Below are positions 3,220 to 52,179 of a DNA stretch of 64,000 nucleotides, piece after piece (within the stretch, counting starts at the first letter, position 1; each line of letters starts with the position of its first letter). Source of the stretch: Candidatus Levyibacteriota bacterium. Lineage in GTDB: Bacteria; Patescibacteriota; Microgenomatia; Levybacterales; UBA12049. The notes beneath the pieces are model-generated. The model was not told the origin of the DNA. It saw nothing but the letters and a program-made list of their open reading frames with translations, and made no database searches. The stretch spans positions 24,129-88,128 of the forward strand of contig JAJDCH010000014.1 of NCBI GenBank assembly GCA_029260905.1. The letters run 5' to 3'. The translations under genes and the position numbers were made by a program.

Positions 3220-6200
3220 ATGAAACTTACAAATCTGTTTAATAAAATAACTTTTTTTAAAAACCCAAATTTTTTACTTGCATTTTTTTGCTTTATAATT
3301 CTTGGATTTGTTTTAAGAGGAATTCCTGGAAATCCTACCGCAAAGGATTTGAGTTCTGATGTATGGGTAGATGAGAAGGGGCCACTTGAACTTTCTCCTG
3401 AAAAAGGAAGATACGCTCTTACCTATTCACTAGTTGAAAATAAGTCGATTTATTTTTCAAAGGAATTAGCTCGTTTTTCTGCACCAGATGTAGGATATAT
3501 AAATAATAGATATGTATCTCTTTTTGCTCCAAGCCTCTCAGCTATTGCCATCCCTGGATATATTTTAGGAAAATTTTTTGGATCAGCACAACTTGGTACA
3601 TATCTTACTGTTACTATTTTTGCAGTTCTTAATGCACTGCTGATTCGTTTGATTGCGATAAGAATAGGTGTGGGTAAAAAAGCTGCAATTATTTCATCGT
3701 TTGCTTTTATTTTTGCATCGCCTGCTTTTTCGTATGCAGTCAGTTTTTATCAACATCATTTAAGTACTTTTTTAATTCTATTAAGCATTTATATATTAAC
3801 CTGTTCTAAATCTGTCAGATCACTAGCTGCTATATGGTTTTTGTTTGCATTTGCCGTAACTGTTGATTATCCAAATTTTTTCATGATGCTTCCAATCGCG
3901 CTTACAGCGTTTTTTAGATCTATTAATGTAAGAAACAAATTAGATCAAATAAGCTTACAAGTAAATTATAAAAAACTGTTAACATTTATTGTCGCTTTTG
4001 TTCCATTAATATCTCTTTTATTATTCAATCAATTTTCAAACGGCAATCCTTTTCTTTTATCAGGAGGTGTTGAGAGAGCAATAGGGGTTGAAAAAGATGG
4101 AACACCAAAGCTTGAAGGGGATGTAATACTTGAGAGACTGGATTTAAAACCAGGTGAGGCTTTGCCAGAAAAAACCATACTTGGATTTTTTCAGAACAGG
4201 AATATGTTAAATGGAATTTATATACAGTTATTTAGTCTTGATAGAGGATTTATTGTTTATGCACCAGTTATGCTTTTTGGAATTCTGGGTCTTATATATG
4301 CTTTAAGAAAAAAAATCAGCAATAGTGAACTTTTACTTTCAATTGTTGGATTCAATCTTATTTTATATTCAATGTGGAGTGATCCAGCAGGCGGTTGGGC
4401 TTTTGGAACGCGTTATCTTATTCCATCTTTCGCAATTCTTTCGATATTCATTGGTTTTGCGCTTCGTATTATTAGAAAAAATATTGTTCTCTTACTTATA
4501 TTTATGAGTCTTTTTTCGTATTCAATTGGAGTTAATACAATTGGTGCAGTCACTTCCAATAGAAATCCGCCAAGAGTTGAGATAAATGATTTGGAATCGA
4601 AAACAAAAAAAGTAGAAAAATACACATTCATGAGAAATTTTGAAAAGCTTAACGACGGAAACGTTAAGTCATATTTCTATCAAACAAATGCAAAAGCTAT
4701 TATCTCAGCAAAAACTTATTATTTAATAATCTTACTGATTCTTTTATCTTCAACTTGTTTTATTTTGTATCAGTTTCAAAGAAAAGATGATGAGATATCT
4801 GAAGTTAAAAATAATGAGTCAGAATCGCTTACGAATTATTCGGAAATTGATATTTCTCAAAAATTTGTTCAAAAAGTAAAAAATTTCTTTCACAAAAGAA
4901 CGATCAAGGTAATTGTTGTAAGTTTTTCGACTGTTTCTATTGTTGCTTTTATCATTTATTATTTGAATGGTCTTGGTCTTGCATACAATGATGCAAGATC
5001 ACATCTAGACATTGGGCGACGCGTGGTAGAGAATTTGCAGCCAGGATTTGCTCAGCTTGGGTCAGTCTGGTTGCCGCTTCCCCATCTTCTTATGACTGTT
5101 ACGATCTGGAATGACTTTATGTGGCATTCTGGATTGTCTGGGGCAATACAGTCTATGGTTTCATATGTAGCATGTAATGTAATGATTTATCTATTTCTTA
5201 AAAAACTTAATGTCTCTATGTTTGGTCGAGTAATAGGAGTTTTGATTTTTGCATTTAATTTAAATGTTTTGTATATGCAATCAACTGCCATGACTGAGCT
5301 TTTACTGCTTGCTACACTTCTGGCTGGCACATATCAGCTTTTGTTGTGGTTTGAGTCAGATGAGGTATGGGATTTGATAAAGTCTGCATTTTTTGTCATG
5401 CTTGCAACACTTATCCGTTATGAAGGCTGGTTTTTGCTTCTTTTTTCAGCTATTTTAATTTTTCTGAAAACACTTAAAAAATCTAGTTATAAAAGAGCTG
5501 AAGGAATGTTTCTTCTTTATTCAAGTTTTGCAGGACTTGGTGTTGTCCTCTGGGTGTTGTGGAACACAATGATTTTTAAAGACCCTCTGTATTTCATATT
5601 CGGACCTTATTCTGCGTCTGCGCAGCAGGAGCTTTTGGAAGAAGCAGGAGTACTAGCAACTAAGCACGATTTGTTTTTTTCATTAAAAACATATTATTTT
5701 GCGCTTGTTTATAATACCGGAATGTTTCAAGTTATCCTAGGAGTTGTAGGTGCGCTTTTCCTTTTCTTTGATAAAAGAATATCTAAGAATCTAAAAATGG
5801 CATCTACTGCTCTTTTTGCGCCTTTTATTTTTAACGTGTTAGCTTTGTATCTAGGTCATTCTGTACTATTTGTACAAGGCTTATCAGGCACCTCATGGTT
5901 TAATGTCAGATATGGCTTGATGATGGCACCTGCTATTGCTATATTTATTGGATTTTTTATGGATAGAGTTAAATCAGTAAGACTGACTATTATTGGTATG
6001 TTGCTTTTTGTAACATTTTTTACATTTGTAAATCATGATGCTGTGACAATTGATGATGCGGTAGTTGGAGCAAGTGGGAAAAACGTTAAAGAAGTTAGTG
6101 GGTATTTAGAAGAAAATGCATTGCAAGAGCCTCATTTTGTACTTATATCAGCAGCAAGTCATGATGCAATTATTTTTTCATCAGGTCTCCCAATGAAGCG

Positions 6201-6441
6201 ATTTATTCATGAAGGAACAGGTTTGTATTGGGATTTAGCAACAGCACATCCTGAAAAATGGGCACGCTGGATCATTCTTCGAACTTATGATCAAGGAGAT
6301 CAAACCTACAGAATACTACAATACAGCACATCTTTTAAGGAAAATTATACATTAGTACATAAATTTCCATTTGCCGATATATATGAATTAAAACCTGAAT
6401 TCATATCTGCTCTTGAGACAAATGCAAGCGCTTTTGAATAA
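3220..6441 (+). CDS. Large polytopic membrane protein that looks like two tandem GT-C-type (PMT/ArnT-like) glycosyltransferase modules fused into one 1073-aa protein
   Basis: The hydrophobic periodicity suggests many TM helices. The first half carries an extracytoplasmic loop (YSLVENKSIYFSKELARFSAPDVGYINNRYVSLFAPS) that resembles PMT_2/ArnT. The second half (from about residue 560, AYNDARSHLDIGRRVVENLQPGFAQLGSVWLPLPH) starts a second GT-C-like module. The modules are separated by a K/E-rich linker. Confidence 0.55.
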   Translation: MKLTNLFNKITFFKNPNFLLAFFCFIILGFVLRGIPGNPTAKDLSSDVWVDEKGPLELSPEKGRYALTYSLVENKSIYFSKELARFSAPDVGYINNRYVSLFAPSLSAIAIPGYILGKFFGSAQLGTYLTVTIFAVLNALLIRLIAIRIGVGKKAAIISSFAFIFASPAFSYAVSFYQHHLSTFLILLSIYILTCSKSVRSLAAIWFLFAFAVTVDYPNFFMMLPIALTAFFRSINVRNKLDQISLQVNYKKLLTFIVAFVPLISLLLFNQFSNGNPFLLSGGVERAIGVEKDGTPKLEGDVILERLDLKPGEALPEKTILGFFQNRNMLNGIYIQLFSLDRGFIVYAPVMLFGILGLIYALRKKISNSELLLSIVGFNLILYSMWSDPAGGWAFGTRYLIPSFAILSIFIGFALRIIRKNIVLLLIFMSLFSYSIGVNTIGAVTSNRNPPRVEINDLESKTKKVEKYTFMRNFEKLNDGNVKSYFYQTNAKAIISAKTYYLIILLILLSSTCFILYQFQRKDDEISEVKNNESESLTNYSEIDISQKFVQKVKNFFHKRTIKVIVVSFSTVSIVAFIIYYLNGLGLAYNDARSHLDIGRRVVENLQPGFAQLGSVWLPLPHLLMTVTIWNDFMWHSGLSGAIQSMVSYVACNVMIYLFLKKLNVSMFGRVIGVLIFAFNLNVLYMQSTAMTELLLLATLLAGTYQLLLWFESDEVWDLIKSAFFVMLATLIRYEGWFLLLFSAILIFLKTLKKSSYKRAEGMFLLYSSFAGLGVVLWVLWNTMIFKDPLYFIFGPYSASAQQELLEEAGVLATKHDLFFSLKTYYFALVYNTGMFQVILGVVGALFLFFDKRISKNLKMASTALFAPFIFNVLALYLGHSVLFVQGLSGTSWFNVRYGLMMAPAIAIFIGFFMDRVKSVRLTIIGMLLFVTFFTFVNHDAVTIDDAVVGASGKNVKEVSGYLEENALQEPHFVLISAASHDAIIFSSGLPMKRFIHEGTGLYWDLATAHPEKWARWIILRTYDQGDQTYRILQYSTSFKENYTLVHKFPFADIYELKPEFISALETNASAFE

Positions 6442-12602: not shown

Positions 12603-12654
12603 AGCTTGACTATATGAGAATTAGAAGCTTTTGTCAATTAGAAATGGGTTTGTA

Positions 12655-12728
12655 GTACGCCCAGAGGGATTCGAACCCCCGACCATGTCGTTAGAACCGA
12701 CGTGCTCTATCCAACTGAGCTATGGGCG
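12655..12728 (-). tRNA. tRNA-Arg (anticodon TCT). The call is tentative because of a C-A mismatch at 27-43 and G at position 32.
   Basis: The acceptor is gcgccca/tgggcgt with G1-U72. The D-arm is gctc-agttggata-gagc (cf. argU), the anticodon loop is gtTCTaa, and the T-loop is ttcgaat. Confidence 0.7.
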
Positions 12729-12816
12729 CATAAAGCTATTTTACCAATTACGCCTACAAGTTGCAATAAGATATCCTATAGTTGAAAATTTGATAAAATT
12801 TTGCTATACTTCAGGC

Positions 12817-13374
12817 ATGAAAGAAGTAAAGATATCTGCTATTGACTTACTGGCATATCCTGATTTTGAAGCAAGTGTGTTTGATAATGGAAAAAAACTT
12901 CATGCTAGGCAATTGGAATTAAGAAATGGTTGGGATCGAAGAATAGAAAATATTTCAAGGGAACCAGGGGTTATTTTGGTTTATTTTTCTATACTTGATA
13001 TCAACCAGATATCTAGTGGTTGGAAGAGCAGTGACTCATTGTTATCAGCTATTGAAAAAGAGGAGATTAAAAGACAACAAAAGTATAATAATCTCCTTAG
13101 AGAAAGGCTTCTTATTATTCCAAGAGATGTGCCCGTTACCAAAGATCTTCTTGGTAAAAAATTGAAGCAAAATGGGCTAATATTTAGCCCAGAAAATTCT
13201 AGGTTGACAGCTTATGGTGAATATACAGAAAATGGAGTAGTGGGCAGGAGAAATGATGTTCGAGTTGCTCTTGGGATATCTGGTATCCATATTGGAACAG
13301 ATTGTGATTTATCTTTATCTATTGAGCAGCAAAGACAGATAACACGTTGGAGAGCAAGAAATAGAGACGAGTAA
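12817..13374 (+). CDS. Hypothetical protein (185 aa), first gene of a three-gene operon
   Basis: The start is set at the first ATG (12817) downstream of the tRNA-Arg gene, because the annotated N-terminus from 12631 overlaps that tRNA. I recognise no domain. The gene is 3 nt upstream of the next gene. Confidence 0.45.
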   Translation: MKEVKISAIDLLAYPDFEASVFDNGKKLHARQLELRNGWDRRIENISREPGVILVYFSILDINQISSGWKSSDSLLSAIEKEEIKRQQKYNNLLRERLLIIPRDVPVTKDLLGKKLKQNGLIFSPENSRLTAYGEYTENGVVGRRNDVRVALGISGIHIGTDCDLSLSIEQQRQITRWRARNRDE

Positions 13375-18980: not shown

Positions 18981-19568
18981 TTAGTTATTTTTATTTAAAT
19001 TTTTTTCTATGTATTTACCAATTAGATCTGTTTCGATATTTATCATATCGCCAATTTTTATATTTCTTAACATCGTGTTTGCATAGGTGAATGGAATAAT
19101 TCCGACATTAAATGATTTTCTGTTAACACTGATAACAGTAAGAGAAATTCCATTTATAGTAATTGAACCCTTTTTAATAATTTGTTTGCTAAGCTCAATT
19201 GGATAAGAGATTGTTAGTATTTTGCTGTTTCCATTTTGTTCAATTTTTTTGATTATTCCTATGCCGTCAACATGCCCTTGAACAAGATGTCCGGATATGA
19301 AATCATTAAGCGTAAGAGGTAGTTCAAGATTTACAACATCATTTATTTTTAATGTTTTAAACATTGTTTTGGAAACAGTTTCTGGCATGATATCAATAGA
19401 GAAGCTTTGTTTTGTTGGTAAGTCTACAACTGTTAGGCAAGTACCATTTGCTGAAACACTCATGCCCTTTTCTAGTTTTTGATAGAAATCTTTTTTTGCT
19501 TTAAACACAAAAGTTGATTTCTTATTTTTAATTAACTTTCCCAAATGATTTATAATTCCTGTAAACAT
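18981..19568 (-). CDS. ribE: Riboflavin synthase alpha subunit
   Basis: It has the MFTGII N-terminus and the GHVDG motif (ISGHLVQGHVDGIG) of the internal lumazine-binding repeats. Confidence 0.9.
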   Translation of the reverse strand: MFTGIINHLGKLIKNKKSTFVFKAKKDFYQKLEKGMSVSANGTCLTVVDLPTKQSFSIDIMPETVSKTMFKTLKINDVVNLELPLTLNDFISGHLVQGHVDGIGIIKKIEQNGNSKILTISYPIELSKQIIKKGSITINGISLTVISVNRKSFNVGIIPFTYANTMLRNIKIGDMINIETDLIGKYIEKNLNKNN

Positions 19569-19594: not shown

Positions 19595-19618
19595 GTGAAA
19601 CTCTGCCTAAGCAATTTG

Positions 19619-19744
19619 TCTTTCTTTTATCCCGACTGTACGGTCGCTATTGGATTTTCACCAATTCATGTCGCCTTAGACGACTCGTAGAGTTATCCCA
19701 TTGGGAATCACTACCGATTTGGACTTCCACCAAACCCCGAAAGA
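19619..19744 (-). promoter_or_regulatory. FMN riboswitch (RFN element) aptamer upstream of ribE-ribH-ribA-ribD
   Basis: The minus-strand read is TCTTTCGGGGTTTGGTGGAAGTCCAAATCGGTAGT...TTGGTGAAAATCCAATAGCGACCGTACAGTCGGGATAAAAGAAAGA. P1 is closed by TCTTTC/GAAAGA. The conserved GGUG-AAAUCC and GCGACCGUACAGUCGGGAU blocks match the RFN consensus. Confidence 0.85.
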
Positions 19745-19817
19745 ACAATATAATAATACTTAATCTGAAGCTATTTGTCAAATAAAAATCTATTTTGAAT
19801 TTAGTATAATTAAGAAA

Positions 19818-24804: not shown

Positions 24805-24833
24805 TTGACATTAATTTTGGTTGATTTTATAAT
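24805..24833 (+). promoter_or_regulatory. Consensus sigma70 promoter TTGACA-17-TATAAT, 10 nt upstream of an ATG (leaderless or near-leaderless)
   Basis: TTGACA lies at 24805-24810 and TATAAT at 24828-24833. The ATG is at 24844 with no Shine-Dalgarno sequence. Confidence 0.55.
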
Positions 24834-24843
24834 TAATTTAAAA

Positions 24844-25329
24844 ATGATAACTGAAAAAGGTACTTCGCTTGTTAAAATAGGATTTTGGGAAAAACAGGTT
24901 CTTTTTGACGCGAGAGTATTTTCAATGCCTCTTAGAGCTAGATGGCAAATTAATGAAAGGTTGGGCTTGGAAAGTCCAACAGATAGAAAATTAGCTGCAT
25001 ATTGTTTCAGAGAATATCAACTTAGACAGAATAGCTTATCGATGGGTAGAAATTTATCTACGATAAGAATGTCTAGCTTTAAAAATTTAGTTGATGAAAA
25101 AGAAAGAATAGAAAATCAGATTATCGAATTGGCTCATATCACGGATTTATTTGTTCAGAATAATTATTCTTCCCAATCCAACAGGCCAAATCTGATAAGG
25201 CAGGCAATCAGTAATTTAGTTACTTCTGGTACTCAACGGGATGAGCAGGAAAGAGTTGCTTTTAGGCTTGAGAGATCGATGCTCTCCACATGGGGTACTG
25301 AATGGAAAACTAGACTAGCTGAAGCTTAA
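24844..25329 (+). CDS. Hypothetical protein (161 aa) upstream of dinB
   Basis: The start is reassigned to 24844 so that the consensus promoter is not inside the CDS. No domain was recognised. Confidence 0.45.
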   Translation: MITEKGTSLVKIGFWEKQVLFDARVFSMPLRARWQINERLGLESPTDRKLAAYCFREYQLRQNSLSMGRNLSTIRMSSFKNLVDEKERIENQIIELAHITDLFVQNNYSSQSNRPNLIRQAISNLVTSGTQRDEQERVAFRLERSMLSTWGTEWKTRLAEA

Positions 25330-25399
25330 TTTTTGACCTCTTTTTATCTTCTTTGTCATCTTGTTTTTCGTAAATTTTTTACATAAACTAATATTGCCT

Positions 25400-26767
25400 A
25401 TGTTTCCTGAAAAGATCATTCTTCATATTGATTTTGATTCATTTTTCGCAAGTGTGGAGCAGCAGAAAAACTCGCTTCTAAGAGGAAGACCTGTTGGCGT
25501 TACAGCAACCAATGGTAGAACGTGCATAATTGCCGCAAGTCGCGAGGCCAAAGCACTTGGTATCAAATCTCCCTCTCGTACATTTGATGCGAAAAGAATC
25601 TGTCCCTCAATTGTATTTGTGCCAGCTGACTTTGTTAATTACTGGAATATAAGTAAGAAATTTTTAAAGATTTGCAATAACTACTCCCCTGTAGTTGAGG
25701 TTTTTTCACTTGATGAGGTTTTTATGGACGCGACGCTTACGGCACCTCTTTTTGGCGGGGTTGAGGGTTTAATAAAAAAATTGAAAAAAGAACTGGCTCA
25801 GGAAATAGGTGAATACATCACTGTGTCTGTTGGTATTTCTCACAATAAAATACTTGCCAAGCTTGCATCAGGAATGAAAAAGCCTGATGGCGCTTTTGAA
25901 ATAAACAAAGAGAACCTGACAGATATTTATAAAAAGGCAAAACTTACTGATATTTGTGGCATAGGTAATAGGATTGAGGTGAGGCTCAATCAAATGGGTA
26001 TTTATAGTCTTGTCCAGCTTTCAAAATGTCCGTTAAATTATTTAATTGCTGAGTTTGGAGAATCTGAAGGAAATTTTCTTTTCAATGTTGGTCGTGGTGT
26101 TGATCAGAGCAATATTGTCCCGTATGCCCAGTTTCCAGGCGTTAAATCAGTGGGACGCAGCTATTGTCTGCCTGTTAATGAATATGATATGAGAAAAGCA
26201 ACTCAGAATATTTATGAGCTCTGTGAAGAGGTCGCGCTCAAATTGAGGAGGCTAAATAAAAAAGCACGCGGTGTAGGATTTTGTTTCAGAGGAAACAAGG
26301 ATATCTCAGGCAGGAAAACTTTTGGAACATACATGAATACAGGGAGGGAATTGTTTGAAGCATGCATGAACAATTTAAATTCTAATTTCCAATACCTAAA
26401 TCCTAAACAATTTCAAAAAATAAAATATAAAAATACAAAACAATTCGATAATTATAATTTTGAAAATTTAGATTTATTTAGTGTTTCTGGTTTGGAATTT
26501 AGGATTTTTGAAATAAAATATCTCCGTCAGATCAGTATTTGGACTTTTAGCTTGAAGAATGCAGACAGTGTGCCTTTATCTTTTTTTGAAACAGCAAAAT
26601 CACAAAAACTTCTTAAAACAATTGATATTTTAAATACCAAATTTGGTGATCATACGATCAGAAACGGATACCTTTTGGATGCTGATAAGCTGACAACTGT
26701 GCCAAACGGTTTTGGGGCTGATAGATATGAAAGGAAGAAATTGACTGATGAGAGTAGGCTGGTCTAA
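25400..26767 (+). CDS. dinB: DNA polymerase IV (Y-family) with an unusually long low-complexity C-terminal extension
   Basis: The N-terminus has ILHIDFDSFFASVEQ (catalytic Asp residues), followed by SVGISHNKILAKLASGMKKPDG. The protein is about 456 aa, against about 350-400 aa typically. The region NSNFQYLNPKQFQKIKYKNTKQFDNYNF is low complexity. Confidence 0.85.
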   Translation: MFPEKIILHIDFDSFFASVEQQKNSLLRGRPVGVTATNGRTCIIAASREAKALGIKSPSRTFDAKRICPSIVFVPADFVNYWNISKKFLKICNNYSPVVEVFSLDEVFMDATLTAPLFGGVEGLIKKLKKELAQEIGEYITVSVGISHNKILAKLASGMKKPDGAFEINKENLTDIYKKAKLTDICGIGNRIEVRLNQMGIYSLVQLSKCPLNYLIAEFGESEGNFLFNVGRGVDQSNIVPYAQFPGVKSVGRSYCLPVNEYDMRKATQNIYELCEEVALKLRRLNKKARGVGFCFRGNKDISGRKTFGTYMNTGRELFEACMNNLNSNFQYLNPKQFQKIKYKNTKQFDNYNFENLDLFSVSGLEFRIFEIKYLRQISIWTFSLKNADSVPLSFFETAKSQKLLKTIDILNTKFGDHTIRNGYLLDADKLTTVPNGFGADRYERKKLTDESRLV

Positions 26768-26800: not shown

Positions 26801-27058
26801 TTAAGTTTTTCTCCTGCTAAACATCATGTAGAGCCATAGGAGTATAACTGATCCTAAAACTGCCACAAATGTTGAGTACAAATTAAATCCTGTGACTCCA
26901 GGCTCTCCAAACGCATTCATAATCATGCCACCGACGAAAGCGCCTATAATTCCAACAATAATATTTCCTAAAGCGCCTTGTTCTGCGTCATTTCCCATAA
27001 TTAGTGATGCAATCCACCCAGCAAGAGCGCCAAATATAATCCAAAGAATAAAATTCAT
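26801..27058 (-). CDS. GlsB/YeaQ/YmgE family (transglycosylase-associated) stress membrane protein
   Basis: The sequence MNFILWIIFGALAGWIASLIMG...GIIGAFVGG, with three TM helices and 85 aa, is typical of the family. A strong AGGAGGTG ribosome-binding site lies upstream. Confidence 0.75.
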   Translation of the reverse strand: MNFILWIIFGALAGWIASLIMGNDAEQGALGNIIVGIIGAFVGGMIMNAFGEPGVTGFNLYSTFVAVLGSVILLWLYMMFSRRKT

Positions 27059-27094: not shown

Positions 27095-27316
27095 TTATTG
27101 TCCTTTATTTACATTTACATCTACCTGATCCGGAACGTTTATCTGCGGAGTAGATGATTGAGTATTGTTTCCTATTGAATTACTGACATAAGGAATTCCA
27201 TAGAAAATAAAAATAATTGCAAAAATTATTATCAAAATAACCCCAAGCAAAAAGCCCATTCCACCTCCTGAATCATTATTTGTGGGTGTTGCTGGATTGT
27301 TAACTACTGTTGCCAT
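27095..27316 (-). CDS. Small membrane protein (73 aa), hypothetical
   Basis: It has a single TM helix (GFLLGVILIIIFAIIFIFYGI). A strong AGGAGGTG ribosome-binding site lies 6 nt upstream. Confidence 0.5.
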   Translation of the reverse strand: MATVVNNPATPTNNDSGGGMGFLLGVILIIIFAIIFIFYGIPYVSNSIGNNTQSSTPQINVPDQVDVNVNKGQ

Positions 27317-27403: not shown

Positions 27404-28216
27404 CTATTCTATGCTACAGACATATGAGCTTTCATCAATTATTCTTTCTCTTTCTTCATGTGTGAGAGGAAGGTTATTAAGAATAGATGGATCTTTACAA
27501 ATGTCTTTACACATGACAATGTGGTTATTGAGAAGATTTACTTTGTTTGCAGGCTTGAGACTAGAAAGAACTGTAATTGGATGAAGTCCTGACTGCTCAA
27601 TAAGGTCTCTTAACGATCCATTTTCAGGATAGTCCCAGCTTATGACTTTCATACCCTTACACATGGCATATGCTTTAACATCTGATGTTGCTTTTGTGTT
27701 TGTGACAATCCATGCATCGTTTAATTCAGCTCCTCTTTTTATATCATCAAATCGTGCCTTGGTGTAAAGCGCTACATGAACTTGAGAGCGAGTACCAGGA
27801 TTATTGTGAAATTTTGCCTCAATCATTGATCTTAATCCGTCTTTTTCAGCAATTACATCAATTTCATGTGCAATACATTCCCCCTGAAGAATTTGTCTTA
27901 TTTTTGTCTTGTAGCCTTGTGCTTGAAGAATATTTGCAATAAAATCTTCAAATGGATAACCACTTGGCCCCAAGTCCATAATTGCCTGCTTGAGACTGTA
28001 TTTGGATCTAGTGAAGGGCTGGGGAGATTTATCAAGATATTCAAGTATATGATGATATATCTCTTTGGTTGAAATATTATCATGAAGTCTTTCTTTTACG
28101 TGAATAAGTGTTTGGTCTTGAAGATTTTTGGGAATTCCTGCACGTTTTATAGAGGACATGACCTTTTCTTCACTAAACGGTTCTGTCTTTCCGTTTGCTT
28201 TTAGGACATTGGGCAT
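27404..28216 (-). CDS. ATP-cone domain fused to an Mrr-cat-like (PD-(D/E)xK) restriction endonuclease domain
   Basis: The N-terminus VLKANGKTEPFSEEKVMSSIKRAG matches the ATP-cone signature. The middle region FEDFIANILQAQGYKTKIRQ...HEIDVIAEKDG...IEAKFH matches the Mrr_cat nuclease core (E/D...EAK). A C-terminal Cys-containing ~100-aa region is unassigned. Confidence 0.6.
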   Translation of the reverse strand: MPNVLKANGKTEPFSEEKVMSSIKRAGIPKNLQDQTLIHVKERLHDNISTKEIYHHILEYLDKSPQPFTRSKYSLKQAIMDLGPSGYPFEDFIANILQAQGYKTKIRQILQGECIAHEIDVIAEKDGLRSMIEAKFHNNPGTRSQVHVALYTKARFDDIKRGAELNDAWIVTNTKATSDVKAYAMCKGMKVISWDYPENGSLRDLIEQSGLHPITVLSSLKPANKVNLLNNHIVMCKDICKDPSILNNLPLTHEERERIIDESSYVCSIE

Positions 28217-28224
28217 AATTTATA

Positions 28225-30558
28225 TTATAGACTTTTTCGTTCAAAGACTACAACTTCTTTTTCTTCTAGAACAATTTTATAGTTTTTATCTTTCCTAAGG
28301 TTTTGAATTTGGATGAGTTGCTTTTCAAGTGATGGAGCTGATTCTGTAGGATTGGTTCTGAAAATTAATATGTCAGCTACCTCTATTCCCTTAGGCAGAA
28401 CATAAATATATTCCCGGTTTGATAGATGAGCCCCAATGTTATTTGATGCAGCAACTTTCTTATCTTTTGGAATATTATTTAAATAATTGTTTAGAATATA
28501 CTTTTCTTTTGCTGGTTTTGTAATCATATCAAGATTTGGTTCTCTTGATCCTGGAAGTGGTCCAAAAAGATAAGCTGCATAAACAGAAACAATAATCATA
28601 TGTATAGACAAATATGAAAGATTGATCTTGGGAAAAATCTTTCTTAGGACAGCTATTCCATAAATAGCACTAATAAAAATAAAAGGAGTAATGGTTGATG
28701 TGTATTGATAGTAAATTTGCTGAAAATTGTCATTGGTACTTAAGAGGTTTTTGAGAAGATCTGGAATTGCATAGATAAGAACTGGTGGAAAAAGAAGCGA
28801 AAGATATGAAAGGGGTAAAAAAAGCTTTGTTAGATAATCAATCTTTTTTTCAGTAAGAATGGCTGAGACTACATCCTGAGGGGATAAGATTATGTTTTTA
28901 ATAATTTCAAATGGACTATTACCAAATTGTGAATAGTTAGATAAGGCAAAGTGATCTCCTCCACGTGCCTGCGGAATTGCAATTGATACTAAATAATAAA
29001 AAACTCCAACTCCTGTGAAAAATAAAATTGAACCAAGTAGCTTTTTGTTGTGTTTTAAAAAAAGAACAGGACCAAAAAGGGCCACAATTAAAAAAACTTG
29101 TTCTTTGGTAATGGCTGCAAGAAGCGCAAAGATCAAAAATGTAAGGTATTTCTTTTTTATCATGAAATAATATGCTGCAAGAAGGAAAGTTGTCGCTAAG
29201 GCAACAGCATGAAAATCATAGATATTAACCCGTTGCAAGCTTGGATTAAGTAGATATGCTATTGACAAAGAAAGTGCTATATTTTTATTAGTTAAAATCC
29301 TCTCTGATATTAGAAAAACAAACAGTGCGCCTATGGACAAAATAATTGTCTGAATAAATAAAAGGGTTTTGGGTGTTTGGAAAACCGCATAGAATGGTGC
29401 AAGAAATATAAGTATAAAATCTGAATGAACCGCTAGTCGAGATTGGATATTTATTCCATCTGGATTTGTAAGTGTAAATATTCTACCCTGGGTAGTATTC
29501 CAGACAGTTTGTGCCATATTCCCAAGATCAAATCTCCCAGCATAATAGTTTTCGTATCTAAGAAAAGAAATTGTTGTGAAGTAGATAATATAAATAATAG
29601 CAAGTAAAATAAGAATGCTTAATTGTTTGTTTTTGTTAATCCATGTTTCTGTTTGTATTAAATATTTATTTTTGGATTTGTACCATAAAAAAGCAAGCCC
29701 TAAAAATATAATTTCAGATATGATTAGAAAAAACCGTGCCAGCAACGATGCAAAGCCTGCAGCACTTGATGAAATAATTTTTGAAAGTCCAAAAACAATT
29801 ATTCCCTCTCTAACACCAAGACCAGCTGGCGTAATAAAAGAAAGCGTGCCAATCAAAAAACTAAGTACAAAAAATCCAGCCAGTTGAAAAAAAAGTTGTG
29901 GATTAAGAAATGTAAAAGACGAAATAGCAAAATAAGCACCCATGCCAAAAAAAAGAAGGTATGTGCAGACAATCAAAAGATGAATAAAGTTCTCTGCTAC
30001 ACTAAATTTTTCCCAAAGTTTATGAATTTTGTGATTGAAAAGATAGACAACAAACCCGATTAGAGCTGATATGTAGACAATGCCTAACCAAAAGTTTCCA
30101 AAGTCAGGAAAAAGATATTTAGAAATAAAAGGAAGCGACAATATTGAAATTAGGAGTGCTCCAACCACAAAAAGCCCCATTTCAATAAGTAAAAGTTTGG
30201 CAATTTCTTTTTGGGTTATACCTTTGTCTGAAAAGTGGGCGCCTCTTGCTAAAAATGACCAAATATTTCCTGGAACATATCTTTTTAGTTCTGAAAACCC
30301 CCAAAAAAGAACAGAATGAGAAAGAGCTATGTCTGCATCATAGATTTTTATTAGTCTATACCACAATCCCCCTCTTAAGAAATAAAAACCTGTAAAGCAA
30401 CATAAAGCATAAAAAATAAAAATATAATTAAGGTTTTGAAATTGTGTTCCAACCTCTGATAAGTTAGGAAGAATTGTTTTGACAATAAAGAATATAGCGA
30501 CAATTGATATTGGCCAGCCAAGAAGGTATTTTAAGGTTGAAATAAATTTATTTTGCAT
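28225..30558 (-). CDS. Large membrane protein with an N-terminal UPF0104 (lysylphosphatidylglycerol-synthase TM-like, flippase-like) domain and a C-terminal GT-C / DUF2079-like domain
   Basis: The N-terminal part carries the GLGVREGIIVFGL motif typical of UPF0104. The C-terminal part RYENYYAGRFDLGNMAQTVWNTTQGRIF...AVHSDFILIF is a polytopic domain resembling DUF2079/GT-C. The start codon lies 6 nt after the tRNA-Arg 3' end. Confidence 0.55.
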   Translation of the reverse strand: MQNKFISTLKYLLGWPISIVAIFFIVKTILPNLSEVGTQFQNLNYIFIFYALCCFTGFYFLRGGLWYRLIKIYDADIALSHSVLFWGFSELKRYVPGNIWSFLARGAHFSDKGITQKEIAKLLLIEMGLFVVGALLISILSLPFISKYLFPDFGNFWLGIVYISALIGFVVYLFNHKIHKLWEKFSVAENFIHLLIVCTYLLFFGMGAYFAISSFTFLNPQLFFQLAGFFVLSFLIGTLSFITPAGLGVREGIIVFGLSKIISSSAAGFASLLARFFLIISEIIFLGLAFLWYKSKNKYLIQTETWINKNKQLSILILLAIIYIIYFTTISFLRYENYYAGRFDLGNMAQTVWNTTQGRIFTLTNPDGINIQSRLAVHSDFILIFLAPFYAVFQTPKTLLFIQTIILSIGALFVFLISERILTNKNIALSLSIAYLLNPSLQRVNIYDFHAVALATTFLLAAYYFMIKKKYLTFLIFALLAAITKEQVFLIVALFGPVLFLKHNKKLLGSILFFTGVGVFYYLVSIAIPQARGGDHFALSNYSQFGNSPFEIIKNIILSPQDVVSAILTEKKIDYLTKLFLPLSYLSLLFPPVLIYAIPDLLKNLLSTNDNFQQIYYQYTSTITPFIFISAIYGIAVLRKIFPKINLSYLSIHMIIVSVYAAYLFGPLPGSREPNLDMITKPAKEKYILNNYLNNIPKDKKVAASNNIGAHLSNREYIYVLPKGIEVADILIFRTNPTESAPSLEKQLIQIQNLRKDKNYKIVLEEKEVVVFERKSL

Positions 30559-30564
30559 TGTAAG

Positions 30565-30639
30565 TACGCCTGGAGGGATTCGAACCCCCGACCCCTTCGT
30601 CCGAAGCGAAGTGCTCTAAATCCGCTGAGCTACAGGCGC
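30565..30639 (-). tRNA. tRNA-Arg (anticodon TCG)
   Basis: The acceptor is gcgcctg/caggcgt with G1-U72. The anticodon stem-loop is cttcg-ctTCGga-cgaag with G37. The T-loop is ttcgaat and the discriminator is A. Confidence 0.85.
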
Positions 30640-46920: not shown

Positions 46921-48708
46921 TCATGCCCAACCTGCACCATCAACTGCTGGTTTTGCAAATTTCCTCATTCTTAAAAGTATTCTGTTTGAAACTTTTTTTA
47001 CATTTGGATGAACTCCTTTATTTTTTTTAACTTCTTTTTTCCATGTGTTTAGTCTTTTTTCAAAAATTTGCTTATCAAATAATTGAGTGCAGTTTATGCT
47101 GTTTTTGTTGGTGTCAACAACTATATCATCTCCATCCTTAATTAAAGCAATCGGGCCTCCAAGATAAGCCTCAGGCCCAACATGTCCAATTACCAATCCA
47201 ACTGAGCCTCCAGAAAATCTAGCATCAGTCATAAGCGCAATTGTAATATTTTTTTTTCTGCAAAGAGATGTAATTCTCGAAGTCGGCTCAAGCAATTCGG
47301 GCATACCTGGGGCTCCTTGAGGTCCGGCGTATCGAATAACAACCATATCTTTGTCTAGAAATATCTCAGGTGTTTTTGATAGTGCATCTAAAAGTTCTTT
47401 TTCGCTATCAAAAACACGAGCCTTACCCTTAAATATACCATTTTCAAGTCCTTTTTCTACTCCAGCAACCTTTATAATTGCCCCACCCTTTGGTGCAAGA
47501 GATCCAGAAAGAAATTTAAGTCCACCTTTTGTTTTAAATGGTTTTTTGACTGAATAAATTACATCTCCATCAGGTTTTGGCGGATTAATACGTCTTACTT
47601 GTTCCATAAGTGTTTCACCAGTACAAGTTGTACAGTCTCCATCAAGAAAACCATTTTCCAGCAATTCTTTAACAATAACAGGGAGTCCTCCCTTTTTTTC
47701 TATGTCAACCATTGAATATTTTCCAAAAGGCCTTGCATTTATAAGAACTGGAAGTTTTTCTGAAAGTGAATTAAATTCTTCCTGTGTTATTACATCCCTC
47801 CAAAGATCAATTCCAGCAGCTCTTGCTATTTCAACGCTATGAAGCGCGACATTTGTTGATCCACCCATGGCAATTACTACAGTTAATGCGTTTTTCAGTG
47901 ATTTTGAAGTAACTATATCACGTGGTTTAATATCTTTTTTTACCATTGTGATAAGTGCTTTTATCAGTTCTTGCGGAAATTCACTTACTCTTCGGGGATC
48001 ATCTGATGTAGGCGTAACCATGTTTAGGGGCTCCATACCAGCAACTGCGATAAATGTCTGCATAGTGTTGTAAGTAAACATGCCACCGCAACTTCCCTGA
48101 CCACAACATGCATTCATGGCTATTTTGTTTCTTTTCTGTGCATCTTTTTCTCCTGCAGCTTGAAAAGCAGTAACAATATCAATCCTCTCTCCAGTTTCTT
48201 GATCAATTCCAGGTTTTATTGAACCATCAGAAAAAATAACTGCAGGTTCATTGTGTTCAAGAATGGCAGCAAGAGTTCCAACAGGTGGCTTGTCACAGGC
48301 AACAACTGAAATAAGACCTCTGAGCTTATTTGCGTTCAAATGAAGACTAATAGAATCATTCGTTATTTCTCGTCCAATTAGGGAATATCTCATTCTTTCA
48401 GTTCCATTCAACTGACCATCAGAAACGCCTATTGTAAATGCTGGTGCGATAAGTCGAATGTTCAAATTTTCATTATTTATCTTTGCACCAAGAAGTTTTT
48501 GGATAGTCTGAACCTTTTCAGTAACGCCCAGATAGCACTGACTATCCCCTAGGCTTCCAGTTACAGCAAAAACTGGGTCATGAACTTTTGTTGGATCCTG
48601 ACCCAGAAATTTTGCAGTACCAATCTGCTGGACATCACGTCCAGGATTATCAGATACAAAGTTTGAAGATTTTTTGTCTCCACAATTACAATCAATGCAC
48701 TTGTTCAT
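46921..48708 (-). CDS. ilvD: Dihydroxy-acid dehydratase
   Basis: It has the CDKPPVG motif (VVACDKPPVGTLAA) and Fe-S cluster cysteines. It is 595 aa. Confidence 0.95.
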   Translation of the reverse strand: MNKCIDCNCGDKKSSNFVSDNPGRDVQQIGTAKFLGQDPTKVHDPVFAVTGSLGDSQCYLGVTEKVQTIQKLLGAKINNENLNIRLIAPAFTIGVSDGQLNGTERMRYSLIGREITNDSISLHLNANKLRGLISVVACDKPPVGTLAAILEHNEPAVIFSDGSIKPGIDQETGERIDIVTAFQAAGEKDAQKRNKIAMNACCGQGSCGGMFTYNTMQTFIAVAGMEPLNMVTPTSDDPRRVSEFPQELIKALITMVKKDIKPRDIVTSKSLKNALTVVIAMGGSTNVALHSVEIARAAGIDLWRDVITQEEFNSLSEKLPVLINARPFGKYSMVDIEKKGGLPVIVKELLENGFLDGDCTTCTGETLMEQVRRINPPKPDGDVIYSVKKPFKTKGGLKFLSGSLAPKGGAIIKVAGVEKGLENGIFKGKARVFDSEKELLDALSKTPEIFLDKDMVVIRYAGPQGAPGMPELLEPTSRITSLCRKKNITIALMTDARFSGGSVGLVIGHVGPEAYLGGPIALIKDGDDIVVDTNKNSINCTQLFDKQIFEKRLNTWKKEVKKNKGVHPNVKKVSNRILLRMRKFAKPAVDGAGWA

Positions 48709-48729
48709 AAAATCAGTGATTTATATTTA

Positions 48730-49788
48730 CTATTCCCCCTTTTTTTGGTATTCAGGTCTTAGTTTTCTAACTTCAATTCCTGTTTGCCACATTTCACTAT
48801 TATGAATTTGATCAAGCTCGACTTGTAATTTTTCACGATAATCTGACTGACTGTTCTTTTTTATAGTTCGTTCGGCTTCTTTTCCTGTTTTGACACTCTT
48901 ATAAAGGTCTTTAAATACAGGTAAGCTTGCATCTCTAAATTTATTTTTCCAATCAAGCGCGCCTCTTTGCGCTGTTGTTGAGCAATTAGCAAACATCCAA
49001 TCCATGCCATTTTCTCCAATTAATGGGATGAGGCTTTGCGTTGCCTCTTCTACAGTTTCGTTAAACGCCTCCGATGGTGTGTGACCATTTTTACGAAGCA
49101 CGCTGTATTGCGCCTCCATTATTCCAGCAATTGCACCCATCAAAACTCCTCTTTCTCCTGTCAAATCACTATAAACTTCTTTTTTAAATGTGGTAGGAAA
49201 AAGAAAGCCTGATCCTATACCAATTCCAATTGCTTTTGCGGTTTCTTCTGCTTTTTTGCTTGGATTTTGATAAACAGCAAAGCTTGAGTTTATGCCTCGA
49301 CCTTCAAGAAAAATTTTCCTTACAGTTTTACCTGAGCCCTTGGGCGCAACCAAAATGACATCTACGTCTTTTGGTGGAACAATTCCAGTTTGCAATGAAA
49401 ATGTAACTCCAAATCCGTGAGAAAAATATAAAGTTTTACCTTTTTTCAAATATTTTTTAACAGTTGGCCAAATTTTTATTTGCGCAGCATCTGAAAGAAG
49501 ATAACAAATAATATCACCTTTTTCACATGCCTTATCAATTTCAAAAAGAGTTTTGCCTTCAACCCATTTGTCCAAAATTGCCTTTTTCCACGACTTTGAT
49601 TTTTTTCTCTGACCTACTATTACATTAAACCCATTATCACGAAGATTTAGAGCTTGTGCAGGACCTTGAACACCATATCCAATAACTGCGATTGTTTTAT
49701 TTTTTAATACTTTTTTTGATTTTTTGAGTGTAAATTCAGAGCGTGTAACCACTTCTTCTCTTACTCCTCCAAAATTTATTTTTGCCAT
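48730..49788 (-). CDS. ilvC: Ketol-acid reductoisomerase
   Basis: The Rossmann motif IGYGVQGPAQALNLRDNG matches the KARI signature GYGSQGHA. Confidence 0.95.
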   Translation of the reverse strand: MAKINFGGVREEVVTRSEFTLKKSKKVLKNKTIAVIGYGVQGPAQALNLRDNGFNVIVGQRKKSKSWKKAILDKWVEGKTLFEIDKACEKGDIICYLLSDAAQIKIWPTVKKYLKKGKTLYFSHGFGVTFSLQTGIVPPKDVDVILVAPKGSGKTVRKIFLEGRGINSSFAVYQNPSKKAEETAKAIGIGIGSGFLFPTTFKKEVYSDLTGERGVLMGAIAGIMEAQYSVLRKNGHTPSEAFNETVEEATQSLIPLIGENGMDWMFANCSTTAQRGALDWKNKFRDASLPVFKDLYKSVKTGKEAERTIKKNSQSDYREKLQVELDQIHNSEMWQTGIEVRKLRPEYQKKGE

Positions 49789-49816
49789 ATGTTTATATTA
49801 TCACCTCCTATCACCC

Positions 49817-50284
49817 TTAATTCATCAAAGCTATTCTACCAGATCTGACATATTCCAATATACCAAATGTTCTTAGTTTTTCCGATAATTTATTAATTGC
49901 TTCTTCTGTACCAGATAATTCAACAATGAAACTATTTTTTTTCTTAGATATAATCTTAGCCTTTTGATCTTTTATAATTTTTTCAATTTTTTCAGGTGTT
50001 TTTTTTGCATTTACTTTTATCAGAGCTATTTCTCGATAGACAATCTTATCATTGGTGGTGTTTATGACATCTATAACTTCAATTATTTTATTTAGTTGAT
50101 TAATTCCTTTTTGAAGAGTTTTAATATTTGCATCAATTACAACTGTAAATCGCGACATATTTTTTTCTTCAATTTTTGAAACAGTAAGACTTTCAATGTT
50201 TATTTTTCTTTTTAGAAAAACATCTGCAATTCTGTACAAAATTCCATGTTTATTTTCTGTAAATACAATAACAGTATTAAGCAT
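49817..50284 (-). CDS. ilvN: Acetolactate synthase small (regulatory) subunit, ACT domain
   Basis: The N-terminal ACT domain begins MLNTVIVFTENKHGILYRIADVF. It is 155 aa. Confidence 0.85.
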   Translation of the reverse strand: MLNTVIVFTENKHGILYRIADVFLKRKINIESLTVSKIEEKNMSRFTVVIDANIKTLQKGINQLNKIIEVIDVINTTNDKIVYREIALIKVNAKKTPEKIEKIIKDQKAKIISKKKNSFIVELSGTEEAINKLSEKLRTFGILEYVRSGRIALMN

Positions 50285-50287
50285 AAT

Positions 50288-51973
50288 TTACTCCAATCTT
50301 ATTTCATCAACAGCTGCACCACTTGGAATCATGGGAAAGATATTTTCTTCTTTTCTTACCTTTACTTCCAGCACATAAGGTTTTTTAGAATCAAGCATTT
50401 TATCAAGTTCTTTGCTTAATTTTTCTCTTTTTTCAACCCTCTCACCATCAACAAAAAATCCTTTACAAACTTTAATAAAGTCAGGGTTTTTAAGATCAAC
50501 AAATGAATATCTATTGTCAAAAAACAGCTCTTGCCACTGTCTTACCATCCCTAAAAAATTATTATTAAGAATAATTACTTTAACTGGAATTTGTTCTTGG
50601 GCAAGAGTGGCCAATTCCTGAATGTTCATCTGAAAACCTCCATCCCCAATTACTGCAACAACTTCTCTTTCAGGTTTTGCAAATTTTGCCCCAATTGCTG
50701 CAGGAAGCGCAAAACCCATGGTGCCAAGACCACCTGATGTAATAAAGCTATCTGTTTTTTGCGCTTTATAATATCTGGCTGCTACCATTTGGTGCTGCCC
50801 AACATCTGCAACAATTACAGCCTCTCCCTTTGTTTTTAGCGATAGCATGTGAATTACCTCAGCCATTGTAATCTTACCTGATTTGGGATGTGTTTCATGA
50901 GTAATGATTTTCTGATGTTCTTTTTTATAACAATCATTAAATTTCTTAACCCATGCAGTATGATTATTTTTCTTGACCATTGGATAAAGACCAGTTAACG
51001 CCTTTTTAGCATCAGCAACAATTGCTATATCTGCATTTACATTCTTGGAAAGCTCAGCAGGATCTATGTCAACATGAATAATCTTTGCATTTTTTGCATA
51101 ATCAGATACTCTTCCAGTCACTCTGTCATCAAATCTCATCCCCACTGCTAGTATTGCATCAGCTTCATTTGTGAGAAGATTTGGGCCATAATTTCCATGC
51201 ATTCCAAGCATCCCCATATACAATGGATGATTTGATGAAAGAGCAGAAAGGCCGTGAAGTGTTGAAGCAGTTGGTATTCCTGTTTTTTCAATAAACTTAA
51301 CAAGTGCTTCTTCAGCTTTTGAAATAAGTATTCCATGACCAATCAGCATAAGTGGTTTTTTTGCTGAATTTAAAATATTTGAGGCCTCTTTTAGCTTGTT
51401 TGGTTCAGGCTCAGGTATAGATTTATATCCAATTATTTTGGGATTTTGTTTATAGAAATAGTTAAATGACTCAATTTGTGCATTTTTTGTAATATCAATA
51501 AGAACCGGTCCGGGACGATTGGTTGATGCGATATGAAAGGCTTTTGCAAAAACCTCAGGTATTTCCTCAGCTTTTGTTATCTGGTAATTCCATTTAGTAA
51601 TAGGTGCAGTTATGCCTATTACATCTGCTTCCTGAAATGCGTCCGATCCTATTAGATGTGCCGCAACTTGTCCGCTTATGCAAACAATTGGTACAGAATC
51701 AAGCATTGCATCAGTTATTGCAGTGACCAAATTTGTTGCTCCTGGCCCAGATGTAACTAGCGCAACTCCTGGTCTACCAGTAAGTCTTGCGTAGCCTTCT
51801 GCTGCGTGCCCAGCACCTTGTTCGTGACGGACAAGCACATGATGGATCTTGTTTCTGTAGTCATATAAAGCATCATAAACAGGCATGATAGCGCCTCCGG
51901 GATAGCCAAAAATTGTATCAACCCCTTCGTTGACCAGTGATTCCATTACTGCTTTTGAACCATTTATTTTCAT
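50288..51973 (-). CDS. ilvB: Acetolactate synthase large subunit (ThDP-dependent)
   Basis: It has a TPP-binding GDG motif (IGDGGFQMNIQEL) and an N-terminal Pyr domain. It is 561 aa. Confidence 0.95.
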   Translation of the reverse strand: MKINGSKAVMESLVNEGVDTIFGYPGGAIMPVYDALYDYRNKIHHVLVRHEQGAGHAAEGYARLTGRPGVALVTSGPGATNLVTAITDAMLDSVPIVCISGQVAAHLIGSDAFQEADVIGITAPITKWNYQITKAEEIPEVFAKAFHIASTNRPGPVLIDITKNAQIESFNYFYKQNPKIIGYKSIPEPEPNKLKEASNILNSAKKPLMLIGHGILISKAEEALVKFIEKTGIPTASTLHGLSALSSNHPLYMGMLGMHGNYGPNLLTNEADAILAVGMRFDDRVTGRVSDYAKNAKIIHVDIDPAELSKNVNADIAIVADAKKALTGLYPMVKKNNHTAWVKKFNDCYKKEHQKIITHETHPKSGKITMAEVIHMLSLKTKGEAVIVADVGQHQMVAARYYKAQKTDSFITSGGLGTMGFALPAAIGAKFAKPEREVVAVIGDGGFQMNIQELATLAQEQIPVKVIILNNNFLGMVRQWQELFFDNRYSFVDLKNPDFIKVCKGFFVDGERVEKREKLSKELDKMLDSKKPYVLEVKVRKEENIFPMIPSGAAVDEIRLE

Positions 51974-51985
51974 AAAGCCTTTATA

Positions 51986-52009
51986 ATCAAAAACCCGCCT
52001 TCCGCGGGT
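51986..52009 (-). terminator. Attenuator terminator of the ilv leader (also palindromic on the plus strand)
   Basis: The minus strand reads CCCGC-GGAA-GCGGG followed by TTTTT. It lies 15 nt upstream of the ilvB ATG. Confidence 0.55.
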
Positions 52010-52035
52010 GTTTTTGTCATGTTGGACAACACCCG

Positions 52036-52080
52036 ATTAGGGGGTAACTTCAACAACAATGACAAGACCTGTTCTATACA
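52036..52080 (-). CDS. Candidate ilv leader peptide MYRTGLVIVVEVTP (14 aa; 6 of 14 residues are Val/Ile/Leu)
   Basis: The ORF was read directly from the sequence. Its stop codon is followed at once by GGGTGTT, which can pair with AACACCC overlapping the 5' arm of the terminator. An extended -10 (TGcTACTAT, minus 52106-52098) lies upstream. Confidence 0.5.
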
Positions 52081-52172: not shown

Positions 52173-52179
52173 CACAGTA

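Follow-up and report, generated by a model that had tools for sequence, protein, structure and literature searches.

An ATP-cone joined to an Mrr-type nuclease in a Levyibacteriota chromosome: a family of Bacteria and Archaea with a candidate role in nucleic-acid turnover or nucleotide salvage

What does an ATP-cone do when the domain that follows it is a nuclease? To our knowledge, the understanding of ATP-cones is limited to their part in switching ribonucleotide reduction, within subunits of ribonucleotide reductase (RNR) and in NrdR. The question is raised by a gene in a 64,000-nucleotide stretch of DNA (the window; contig JAJDCH010000014.1, positions 24,129 to 88,128) from Candidatus Levyibacteriota bacterium, whose 270-residue product joins an N-terminal ATP-cone to an Mrr-type PD-(D/E)xK nuclease core and a C-terminal helical domain; an identical sequence is present in a public protein collection (P0001). 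An original prediction, made from the letters of the DNA, had recognized the first two of these domains and had suggested a nuclease gated by the nucleotide pool, possibly acting in defence or stress, for example in response to phage. The architecture is already catalogued in databases and the sequence family is not new, and full-text literature searches found no paper on the ATP-cone/nuclease fusion and no functional or biochemical report. What is new is an ATP-cone with a nuclease as its output, the spread of this combination across the domains of life, its occurrence in a salvage-type operon, and the truncated state of the reference structure. Here we describe these features and weigh what they imply. 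The gene is best explained as a chromosomal, vertically inherited member of an ancient family of Bacteria and Archaea that includes AF1548 of Archaeoglobus fulgidus, and gating of the nuclease by the nucleotide pool is the most economical reading suggested by the sequences.

The gene occupies exactly the position and strand originally assigned to it, and the proposed fusion proved right by three approaches: Pfam profiles, in which both PF03477 (ATP-cone) and PF04471 (Mrr_cat) scored above their curated cut-offs (Table 1); a full-length AlphaFold model built from 30 homologues (pLDDT 84, pTM 0.71); and Foldseek comparisons made with that model. The ATP-cone profile is matched by all 39 members of a diverse set of family sequences. 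In the model the cone consists of two strands (residues 3-5 and 11-13, forming a beta-hairpin over residues 3-13) and three helices (16-25, 30-42 and 50-63), and Foldseek matched this N-terminus to the cones of Escherichia coli NrdA, Aquifex R1 (7agj) and P. copri NrdD; superposition on the 7agj cone gave an rmsd of 3.1 A over 89 columns. The motif itself reads V-L-K-A-N-G-K-T-E-P-F-S-E-E-K-V, so that the signature first proposed for it stands in its V-x-K start and its assignment to the cone family, but not in the K-R and K-I pairs, which are K-A and K-V in this protein. An alignment places the cone in register with its counterparts in E. coli NrdA and NrdR; the two lysines K6 and K18, opposite NrdA K9 and K21, are invariant there, and E12 and T50, which match NrdA E15 and T55, are both conserved. 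K6 and K18 are also invariant among 30 close homologues, and each of K6, K18 and T50 is kept in more than 90% of the diverse members; the position after the first cone lysine is Ser (K-S) in E. coli NrdR and Arg (K-R) in archaeal members. In structures of E. coli NrdA, the V-x-K-R...E...K...T residues are those that contact nucleotide. The window protein shares with the cones of NrdA, NrdD, NrdB and NrdR the domain family, the fold of hairpin and helices, and the aligned K6, K18 and T50. It differs in what the domain is attached to, the RNR and NrdR cones driving an RNR subunit or a Zn-ribbon and this one a nuclease.

The core of the nuclease half in the model has the order alpha-beta-beta-beta-alpha-beta (helix 87-99, strands 103-111, 116-125 and 128-135, helix 145-159, strand 167-172), the Mrr_cat profile matches 38 of the 39 diverse members, and the segments by which the core had originally been recognized (FEDF, GY, HEIDVIAEKDG and IEAKFH) are all found in the translation. 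Four residues with a putative catalytic role (E90, D120, E133 and K135) show no variation in either the 30 close homologues, at 57-69% identity, or the 39 diverse sequences, at 34-53%. Because these four residues are invariant and the model contains a standard PD-(D/E)xK core, the nuclease is very probably active. Between the cone and the first nuclease helix lies a connecting motif that includes E90 and is the most conserved stretch of the family (Table 1); in it G83, G86, F89 and E90 are invariant among the 39 diverse members.

The C-terminal region, with its cysteines, had been left unassigned in the original prediction, and it can in fact be assigned. Residues 91-264 align with the crystal structure 1Y88 of AF1548 (phmmer E=4e-34), and Foldseek matched 1Y88 to the AlphaFold model with E=1.8e-16 and a TM score of 0.84. 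The corresponding Pfam family, AF1548-like_C (PF22357), reaches 18.4 bits over residues 213-264, short of the 23.9 set as its cut-off, and is found in 32 of the 39 diverse members. Modelled in isolation, residues 196-270 gave a poor AlphaFold prediction (pLDDT 69, pTM 0.48), for which Foldseek returned nothing from the PDB below E=2. The domain may be helix-hairpin-helix-like (HhH-like), as suggested by matches of the HHH_5 profile in two of the 39 members and by the classification of 1Y88 in SCOP.

The nuclease and C-terminal domains of AF1548 are homologous to those described here, and D120, E133 and K135 align, with identical spacing, with the catalytic D/E/K triad that Yooseph et al. predicted in AF1548 (PMC1821046), a protein labelled there as a "predicted restriction endonuclease" with no further assigned function. 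Unlike the window protein, the crystallized sequence has neither the ATP-cone nor the LGPxG(F/Y)xFE motif that carries the glutamate of the first helix. When AF1548 was used as a query, however, the best match (P0271) was a protein of 265 residues, 99% identical, with the canonical cone start M-L-R-V-R-K-R-D-G-R-L-E-E-F. On an Archaeoglobus contig bearing such a gene (L092:8001-8798; L numbers denote our loci), the crystallized sequence begins at an internal GTG that corresponds to V92 of the 265-codon open reading frame (ORF), and the true start of that ORF lies within the MscS channel gene before it, the overlap being 35 nt (L092:8001-8035). Judged from these sequences, PDB 1Y88 represents a truncated ORF that is missing both the regulatory domain and a conserved residue of the active-site helix. 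We therefore rejected the proposition that AF1548 proves the existence of a cone-less nuclease, near-identical Archaeoglobus proteins having the cone.

The family was sought exhaustively among 1.84 billion cluster representatives. At 50% identity, 1083 clusters were retrieved, and 431 of these matched at E<=1e-30. The best 150 clusters are all full length (263-403 residues, most of them 265-295), and in all except one the match begins within residues 1-5. Fusion of the ATP-cone to the nuclease is the rule in this family, not a one-off. A pattern scan for the connecting motif, with one genome per species, found a member in at least 598 species genomes. Among Patescibacteria, or candidate phyla radiation (CPR) bacteria, carriers include Levyibacteriota, Gottesman-, Davies-, Shapiro- and Chisholmbacteria, Paceibacterota and Saccharimonadales; other bacterial carriers belong to Bacteroidota (Owenweeksia, Roseivirga, Terrimonas, Ferruginibacter and Flavobacteriales), Chlorobiota and Chlamydiota. 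Searches with the AF1548 sequence extended the family to Archaeoglobus, Geoglobus, Ferroglobus, Nanoarchaeota, Aenigmatarchaeota and Hadesarchaea, nearly all with the three domains, and showed it to be common in DPANN archaea. The closest species-level relative among the matches listed is a Levyibacteriota metagenome-assembled genome (MAG), whose copy is 69% identical and stands in the same order of genes. Database entries for the family read "ATP cone domain-containing protein", "restriction endonuclease" or "Holliday junction resolvase-like"; the labels naming a restriction endonuclease and a Holliday junction resolvase are probably misleading.

A separate matter of labelling emerged from the same searches. 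Many MAG records titled "uncultured Gammaproteobacteria bacterium" (SRP..._co / binchicken) contain a protein of Levyibacteriota type together with its synteny (L012, L014, L016-L023, L026, L028, L029 and others), and one record titled "uncultured Citrobacter sp." (L077) agrees with Terrimonas (L073) in hit coordinates, scores and gene order. The taxonomy given for such records looks unreliable.

To describe the genomic settings of the family, all ORFs in 81 loci were clustered and the recurrent clusters annotated. The position of the gene is stable within lineages and lies among housekeeping genes, including those for tRNA synthetases, MnmA, MltG, transporters and nickel superoxide dismutase (Ni-SOD); four recurrent arrangements are given in Table 1. 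A same-strand gene stands upstream of the nuclease in 70 of the 81 loci, at a median gap of 28 nt, and in 26 of the 81 that gene is, as in the window, a DUF2079 gene. We also observed that the nuclease gene repeatedly follows, by a tiny gap or an overlap, a gene for membrane transport or another membrane protein, the partner differing by lineage: DUF2079 in the window, and MscS, CorA and a permease-Usp gene in archaea (L090:8001, L091:7998-8001, L092). Genes for a P-type ATPase and for MgtC adjoin the nuclease in other CPR and Bacteroidota loci, and a link to the homeostasis of Mg2+ or other cations is possible.

One arrangement that hints at function is a four-gene cluster in which the nuclease gene is followed by genes for a beta-CASP/RMMBL hydrolase, a long phosphorylase of archaeal type and a member of a phosphoribosyl pyrophosphate (PRPP) synthetase subfamily (Table 1). 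The full cluster, headed by the nuclease, occurs on plasmids of Pontibacter and Criblamydia and on the chromosome of Owenweeksia, with gaps of -4 to 12 nt between genes; it is found partly in a further locus (L068), where an ATPase gene is inserted, and the nuclease/beta-CASP pair occurs in four further Bacteroidota loci. The products are named in databases as a metallo-beta-lactamase (MBL)-fold hydrolase, a "thymidine phosphorylase family protein" and a ribose-phosphate pyrophosphokinase. The first is a beta-CASP enzyme (RNase-type) with the "RNA specificity" domain RMMBL. The phosphorylase matches NF003338 at 668-679 bits and the AMP phosphorylase model AMP_phos (TIGR03327) at 480-506 bits, under the cut-off of 535, and the synthetase falls into the PRPP-synthetase subfamily NF005537. 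That the three partners in Criblamydia are 66-73% identical to those in Owenweeksia implies transfer of the whole cluster from one phylum to another. In Paceibacterota a gene for a YfbR-like HD 5'-deoxynucleotidase often lies directly downstream of the nuclease, with a gene of the uracil-DNA glycosylase (UDG) family adjacent. Three adjacent genes whose products bear these MBL, PRPP-synthetase and thymidine-phosphorylase-family names occur in Bradyrhizobium diazoefficiens (bll3115-3117), where they are microoxia-induced and belong to a 62-protein core microoxic proteome (PMC6515984).

In the sole tight operons of the family, the nuclease is grouped with enzymes that would act on what it releases, and the family is concentrated among organisms dependent on scavenged nucleotides; a preprint describes CPR organisms as unable to synthesise nucleotides (bioRxiv 10.64898/2026.07.13.738296). 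For these two reasons we prefer a housekeeping function, in the turnover of nucleic acid or in nucleotide salvage, to one in restriction, with a confidence that falls a little short of an even chance. The mechanism we propose is by analogy. ATP-cones are known to act through nucleotide-dependent changes of oligomeric state, NrdR being dodecameric with ATP and, with ATP plus dATP, a tetramer that binds DNA (PMC9110341). In the nuclease, the ligand of the cone would be ATP, dATP or some other adenine nucleotide, and occupancy would alter oligomeric state or domain packing as it does in RNRs and NrdR; the altered assembly would activate or silence the endonuclease, and cleavage would thereby track the adenine-nucleotide or deoxynucleotide pool, and the cleaved nucleic acid would then pass to exonucleases, nucleotide phosphorylases and PRPP-forming enzymes. 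The need for such a supply would be greatest in CPR and DPANN organisms without nucleotide synthesis, and would also arise under energy limitation. We hold more tentatively, and with appreciably less confidence, a broader form of this proposal: an ancient "nucleotide-stat" nuclease shared between domains of life, in which ATP or dATP at the cone would gate the breakdown of RNA or DNA for salvage, and which CPR bacteria and DPANN archaea would have kept above others for want of nucleotide synthesis, while it would serve free-living Bacteroidota under limitation of energy or oxygen.

Several observations weigh against a role in turnover or salvage under control of the cone. The phosphate-binding R10 of NrdA is replaced in the window protein by an alanine that is invariant among the 30 close homologues. 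The salvage-type operon is confined to the Bacteroidota/Chlamydiota branch, where the beta-CASP gene accompanies the nuclease at eight loci and the full set at four, and its partners are absent from the window and from the Levyibacteriota loci, in which the neighbours are the DUF2079 gene and the convergent dinB. The Bradyrhizobium triad is likened to this operon by product name and adjacency only. Finally, an HhH-like C-terminus and neighbours such as DinB, UDG and UvrD would suit DNA repair about equally well.

DNA repair is indeed the main rival to turnover or salvage, although we regard it as unlikely. The protein would then be an endonuclease of repair or recombination, specific for a structure or for damage in the manner of Hjc, NucS or Mrr; its C-terminal helical domain would hold duplex DNA, and its cone would tune activity to the availability of dNTPs, for example by withholding incision until there are dNTPs for repair synthesis. 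A lineage-specific repair gene does occur within about three genes of the nuclease at many loci (DinB at 24 of the 81, nearly all of Levyibacteriota type; a UDG-family gene at eight; PDDEXK_1 at five; UvrD at five), an Aenigmatarchaeota locus places the gene near Pur_DNA_glyco and DHH, and the fold resembles EndoMS/NucS and XisH by Foldseek. Taken together, 37 of the 81 loci have DinB, UDG, UvrD, PDDEXK_1, beta-CASP or HD nucleotidase within three genes on either side, a count that is post hoc and has no background comparison. The identity of the repair gene nevertheless varies with lineage; dinB, being convergent, is not co-transcribed with the nuclease, and UvrD lies on the opposite strand. 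Weak profile matches to Hjc (7 of 39 members, best E=0.0029), to Card1_endonuc (6 of 39) and, as given above, to HHH_5 likewise favour repair; yet Geoglobus has a separate, bona fide Hjc of 132 residues three genes downstream of the nuclease, so that the family is not Hjc. The only tight operons with overlapping genes connect the nuclease to enzymes of nucleotide catabolism or salvage.

A non-catalytic regulator in the manner of NrdR, in which the nuclease fold and C-terminus would bind DNA and repress neighbouring genes according to the level of ATP or dATP, seems to us highly improbable. An ATP-cone can drive DNA binding, as NrdR demonstrates (PMC9110341), the gene often heads or lies within small operons (the frequent same-strand upstream gene noted above being one sign of this), and a homologue is entered in one source as "transcriptional regulator NrdR family protein". 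Against these points, invariance of four catalytic residues over 34-69% identity would be unexpected for an inactivated fold, and neighbours that differ completely between lineages indicate no common regulon. NrdR moreover has an N-terminal Zn-ribbon before its cone, while the window protein begins directly with the cone, has no Zn-ribbon and scores 13.9 bits with the NrdR model TIGR00244 against a cut-off of 124.65; it is not NrdR. Defence against phages, or abortive infection, is also unlikely, if less so than the regulator. In this proposal, a development of the phage-responsive effector first suggested, the cone would sense a change in ATP or dNTPs induced by a phage and release a non-specific nuclease. 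The architecture does parallel that of ligand-activated defence nucleases: Can2, Card1 and Cdn1 follow the same logic of a small-molecule sensor joined to a PD-(D/E)xK nuclease, and their nuclease domains are structurally similar to that of the window protein (Foldseek E 2e-4 to 5e-3). The sensor of Can2 and Card1, however, is a CARF domain with a second messenger as its ligand, whereas the window protein has an ATP-cone, with a primary metabolite (ATP or dATP) as the expected ligand, and no CRISPR or CBASS context; it does not belong to the CARF nucleases. PADLOC returned weak matches to the ZorD nuclease domain (the best, E=1.3e-5), Csx1 and CARF-PDDEXK models, all of them generic, Mrr-like and confined to the nuclease core. 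No relative was found by tblastn in 50,697 phage records or by pattern scan in 2.9 million IMG/VR viral contigs, and the full-length copies on plasmids, which might have spoken for defence, number two in 72,556 (Pontibacter actiniarum and Criblamydia sequanensis) and both lie inside the metabolic operon. Identity of 57-69% across many CPR lineages and a position fixed by lineage are the opposite of what is seen for defence genes, which are patchy and linked to islands.

The neighbourhoods tell against defence and restriction in the same way. The neighbourhoods surveyed contain no defence island and neither cas nor CBASS genes, and in the 64-kb window the nuclease is single-copy with no defence genes beside it; with generic PADLOC matches and housekeeping neighbours, a defence island was rejected. 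So was an origin in a mobile element, given the absence of phage and IMG/VR matches and the mere two plasmids. The conservation of neighbourhood that the original prediction had proposed to examine for defence islands is real, and is that of lineage-stable housekeeping synteny. That prediction had also named a consistent methyltransferase partner as the mark of plain restriction. No DNA methyltransferase recurs as a partner in the 81 loci, the sole methyltransferase cluster being a generic class-I S-adenosylmethionine enzyme encoded divergently at seven loci. The family shares with Mrr-type (type IV) restriction enzymes the Mrr_cat domain and the D...ExK motif; it differs from them in having no DNA-reading domain of Mrr_N type, no methyltransferase or defence context and no phage copies, and in its high vertical conservation. 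We accordingly rejected both classical restriction-modification and type IV restriction: neither a recurrent methyltransferase partner nor a modification-reading domain nor a mobile or defence context is present.

Within the window, the ATG of the nuclease gene lies 8 nt past the stop codon of the DUF2079 gene (28217-28224), and no Shine-Dalgarno sequence of its own was found before the start. Because the upstream stop lies so close, the two genes are probably co-transcribed and translationally coupled. Operon boundaries here are drawn from gene spacing alone; a scan for promoters and terminators found no more sites than in shuffled sequence, and Rfam showed no regulatory RNA near the nuclease gene. 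The surroundings first described for the gene were borne out, two small membrane-protein genes with AGGAGGTG sites, one of them of Transgly_assoc/GlsB type, lying downstream, and dinB being convergent with the nuclease gene. No RNR genes lie near it. The window as a whole is ordinary chromosome, with UvrA, IlvB/IlvD/LeuA, SufB and nine tRNAs.

Table 1. Coordinates and identifying evidence for the ATP-cone nuclease gene, its domains and neighbours in the window, and recurrent gene arrangements at other loci (> and < give gene direction)
Feature	Position	Strand	Evidence or remarks
ATP-cone nuclease ORF, complete	27404..28216	-	270 aa, ATG start; ATP-cone + PD-(D/E)xK nuclease + AF1548-like C-terminal domain
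ATP-cone domain, residues 3-74	27995..28210	-	Pfam PF03477, 31.1 bits vs cut-off 25.8
Motif L-G-P-(S/T)-G-(Y/F)-P-F-E-(D/x)-F, residues 82-92	27941..27973	-	most conserved stretch of the family
Mrr-type PD-(D/E)xK nuclease core, residues 85-192	27641..27964	-	Pfam PF04471, 29.4 bits vs cut-off 21
AF1548-like C-terminal helical domain, residues ~195-264	27425..27634	-	phmmer alignment to 1Y88 reaching residue 264
Upstream gene, 777-aa LPG_synthase_TM + DUF2079 membrane protein	28225..30558	-	Pfam
tRNA-Arg (TCG)	30564..30639	-	directly upstream of DUF2079 gene, head of minus-strand run
Downstream gene, 73-aa predicted membrane protein	27095..27316	-	own GGAGGTG site; no Pfam family above threshold
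Downstream gene, 85-aa Transgly_assoc (GlsB/YmgE-type) membrane protein	26801..27058	-	PF04226, 54.3 bits; own AGGAGGTG site
dinB, Y-family DNA polymerase	25361..26767	+	convergent with the run; Pfam IMS/IMS_HHH_1/IMS_C
Nuclease > beta-CASP/RMMBL hydrolase > long archaeal-type phosphorylase > PRPP-synthetase subfamily	L088:1972-6597, L089:6995-11602, L041:6001-10640		
Levyibacteriota-type arrangement			MacB transporter - DUF2079 > nuclease > small membrane proteins < DinB
Paceibacterota-type arrangement			leucyl-tRNA synthetase (LeuRS) - sigma-like - YceG/MltG - MnmA > nuclease > HD 5'-deoxynucleotidase-like / UDG-family / MgtC / PDDEXK_1 ... alanyl-tRNA synthetase (AlaRS)
Third CPR group arrangement			Peptidase_C39 > nuclease > Ni-SOD - S26 peptidase ... 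< FemAB < UvrD
Bacteroidota arrangement			Usp genes ... nuclease > beta-CASP hydrolase, P-type ATPase

Other features of the window deserve a brief record. For dinB, the listed ORF probably begins too early, the real start lying about 13 codons further in. Directly upstream of dinB, and co-directional with it, stands an ORF of some 171-174 aa with no Pfam family, both in the window (24805-25329, plus strand) and in a distant homologous locus (L003:11388-11903); it may be a conserved DinB-associated gene. An FMN riboswitch (19615-19748, minus strand, 84.9 bits) precedes a minus-strand gene run (18981-19568 onward) that presumably serves riboflavin synthesis or transport. An ORF of 1073 aa (3220-6441, plus strand), in otherwise housekeeping surroundings, has no Pfam family at E<=1e-6. 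A listed ORF of 247 aa with a TTG start (12631-13374, plus strand) overlaps a tRNA-Arg (TCT) on the opposite strand (12655-12729, minus strand), and because of this overlap its real start is probably further downstream. CPR bacteria, Levyibacteriota among them, are usually described as having no amino-acid biosynthesis, which makes the presence of branched-chain amino-acid biosynthesis genes at 46921-53806 (IlvD, an acetolactate-synthase-type thiamine pyrophosphate enzyme and LeuA) worthy of note.

With hundreds of subfamilies in Bacteria and Archaea, the ATP-cone nucleases are especially common in CPR and DPANN symbionts that depend on scavenged nucleotides. They are also tractable: the window protein is a soluble protein of 270 aa, a crystal structure of the nuclease half exists, and cultured carriers include Pontibacter actiniarum, Criblamydia sequanensis, Ferroglobus placidus and Geoglobus. 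If the broader proposal made above is true, this would be the first characterised nuclease under the control of an ATP-cone, and would extend the allostery of that domain from the synthesis of dNTPs to the degradation of nucleic acid. Gating of the nuclease by its cone would establish a direct feedback between the nucleotide pool and nucleic-acid degradation, and might explain in part how ultra-small symbionts manage their supply of nucleotides.

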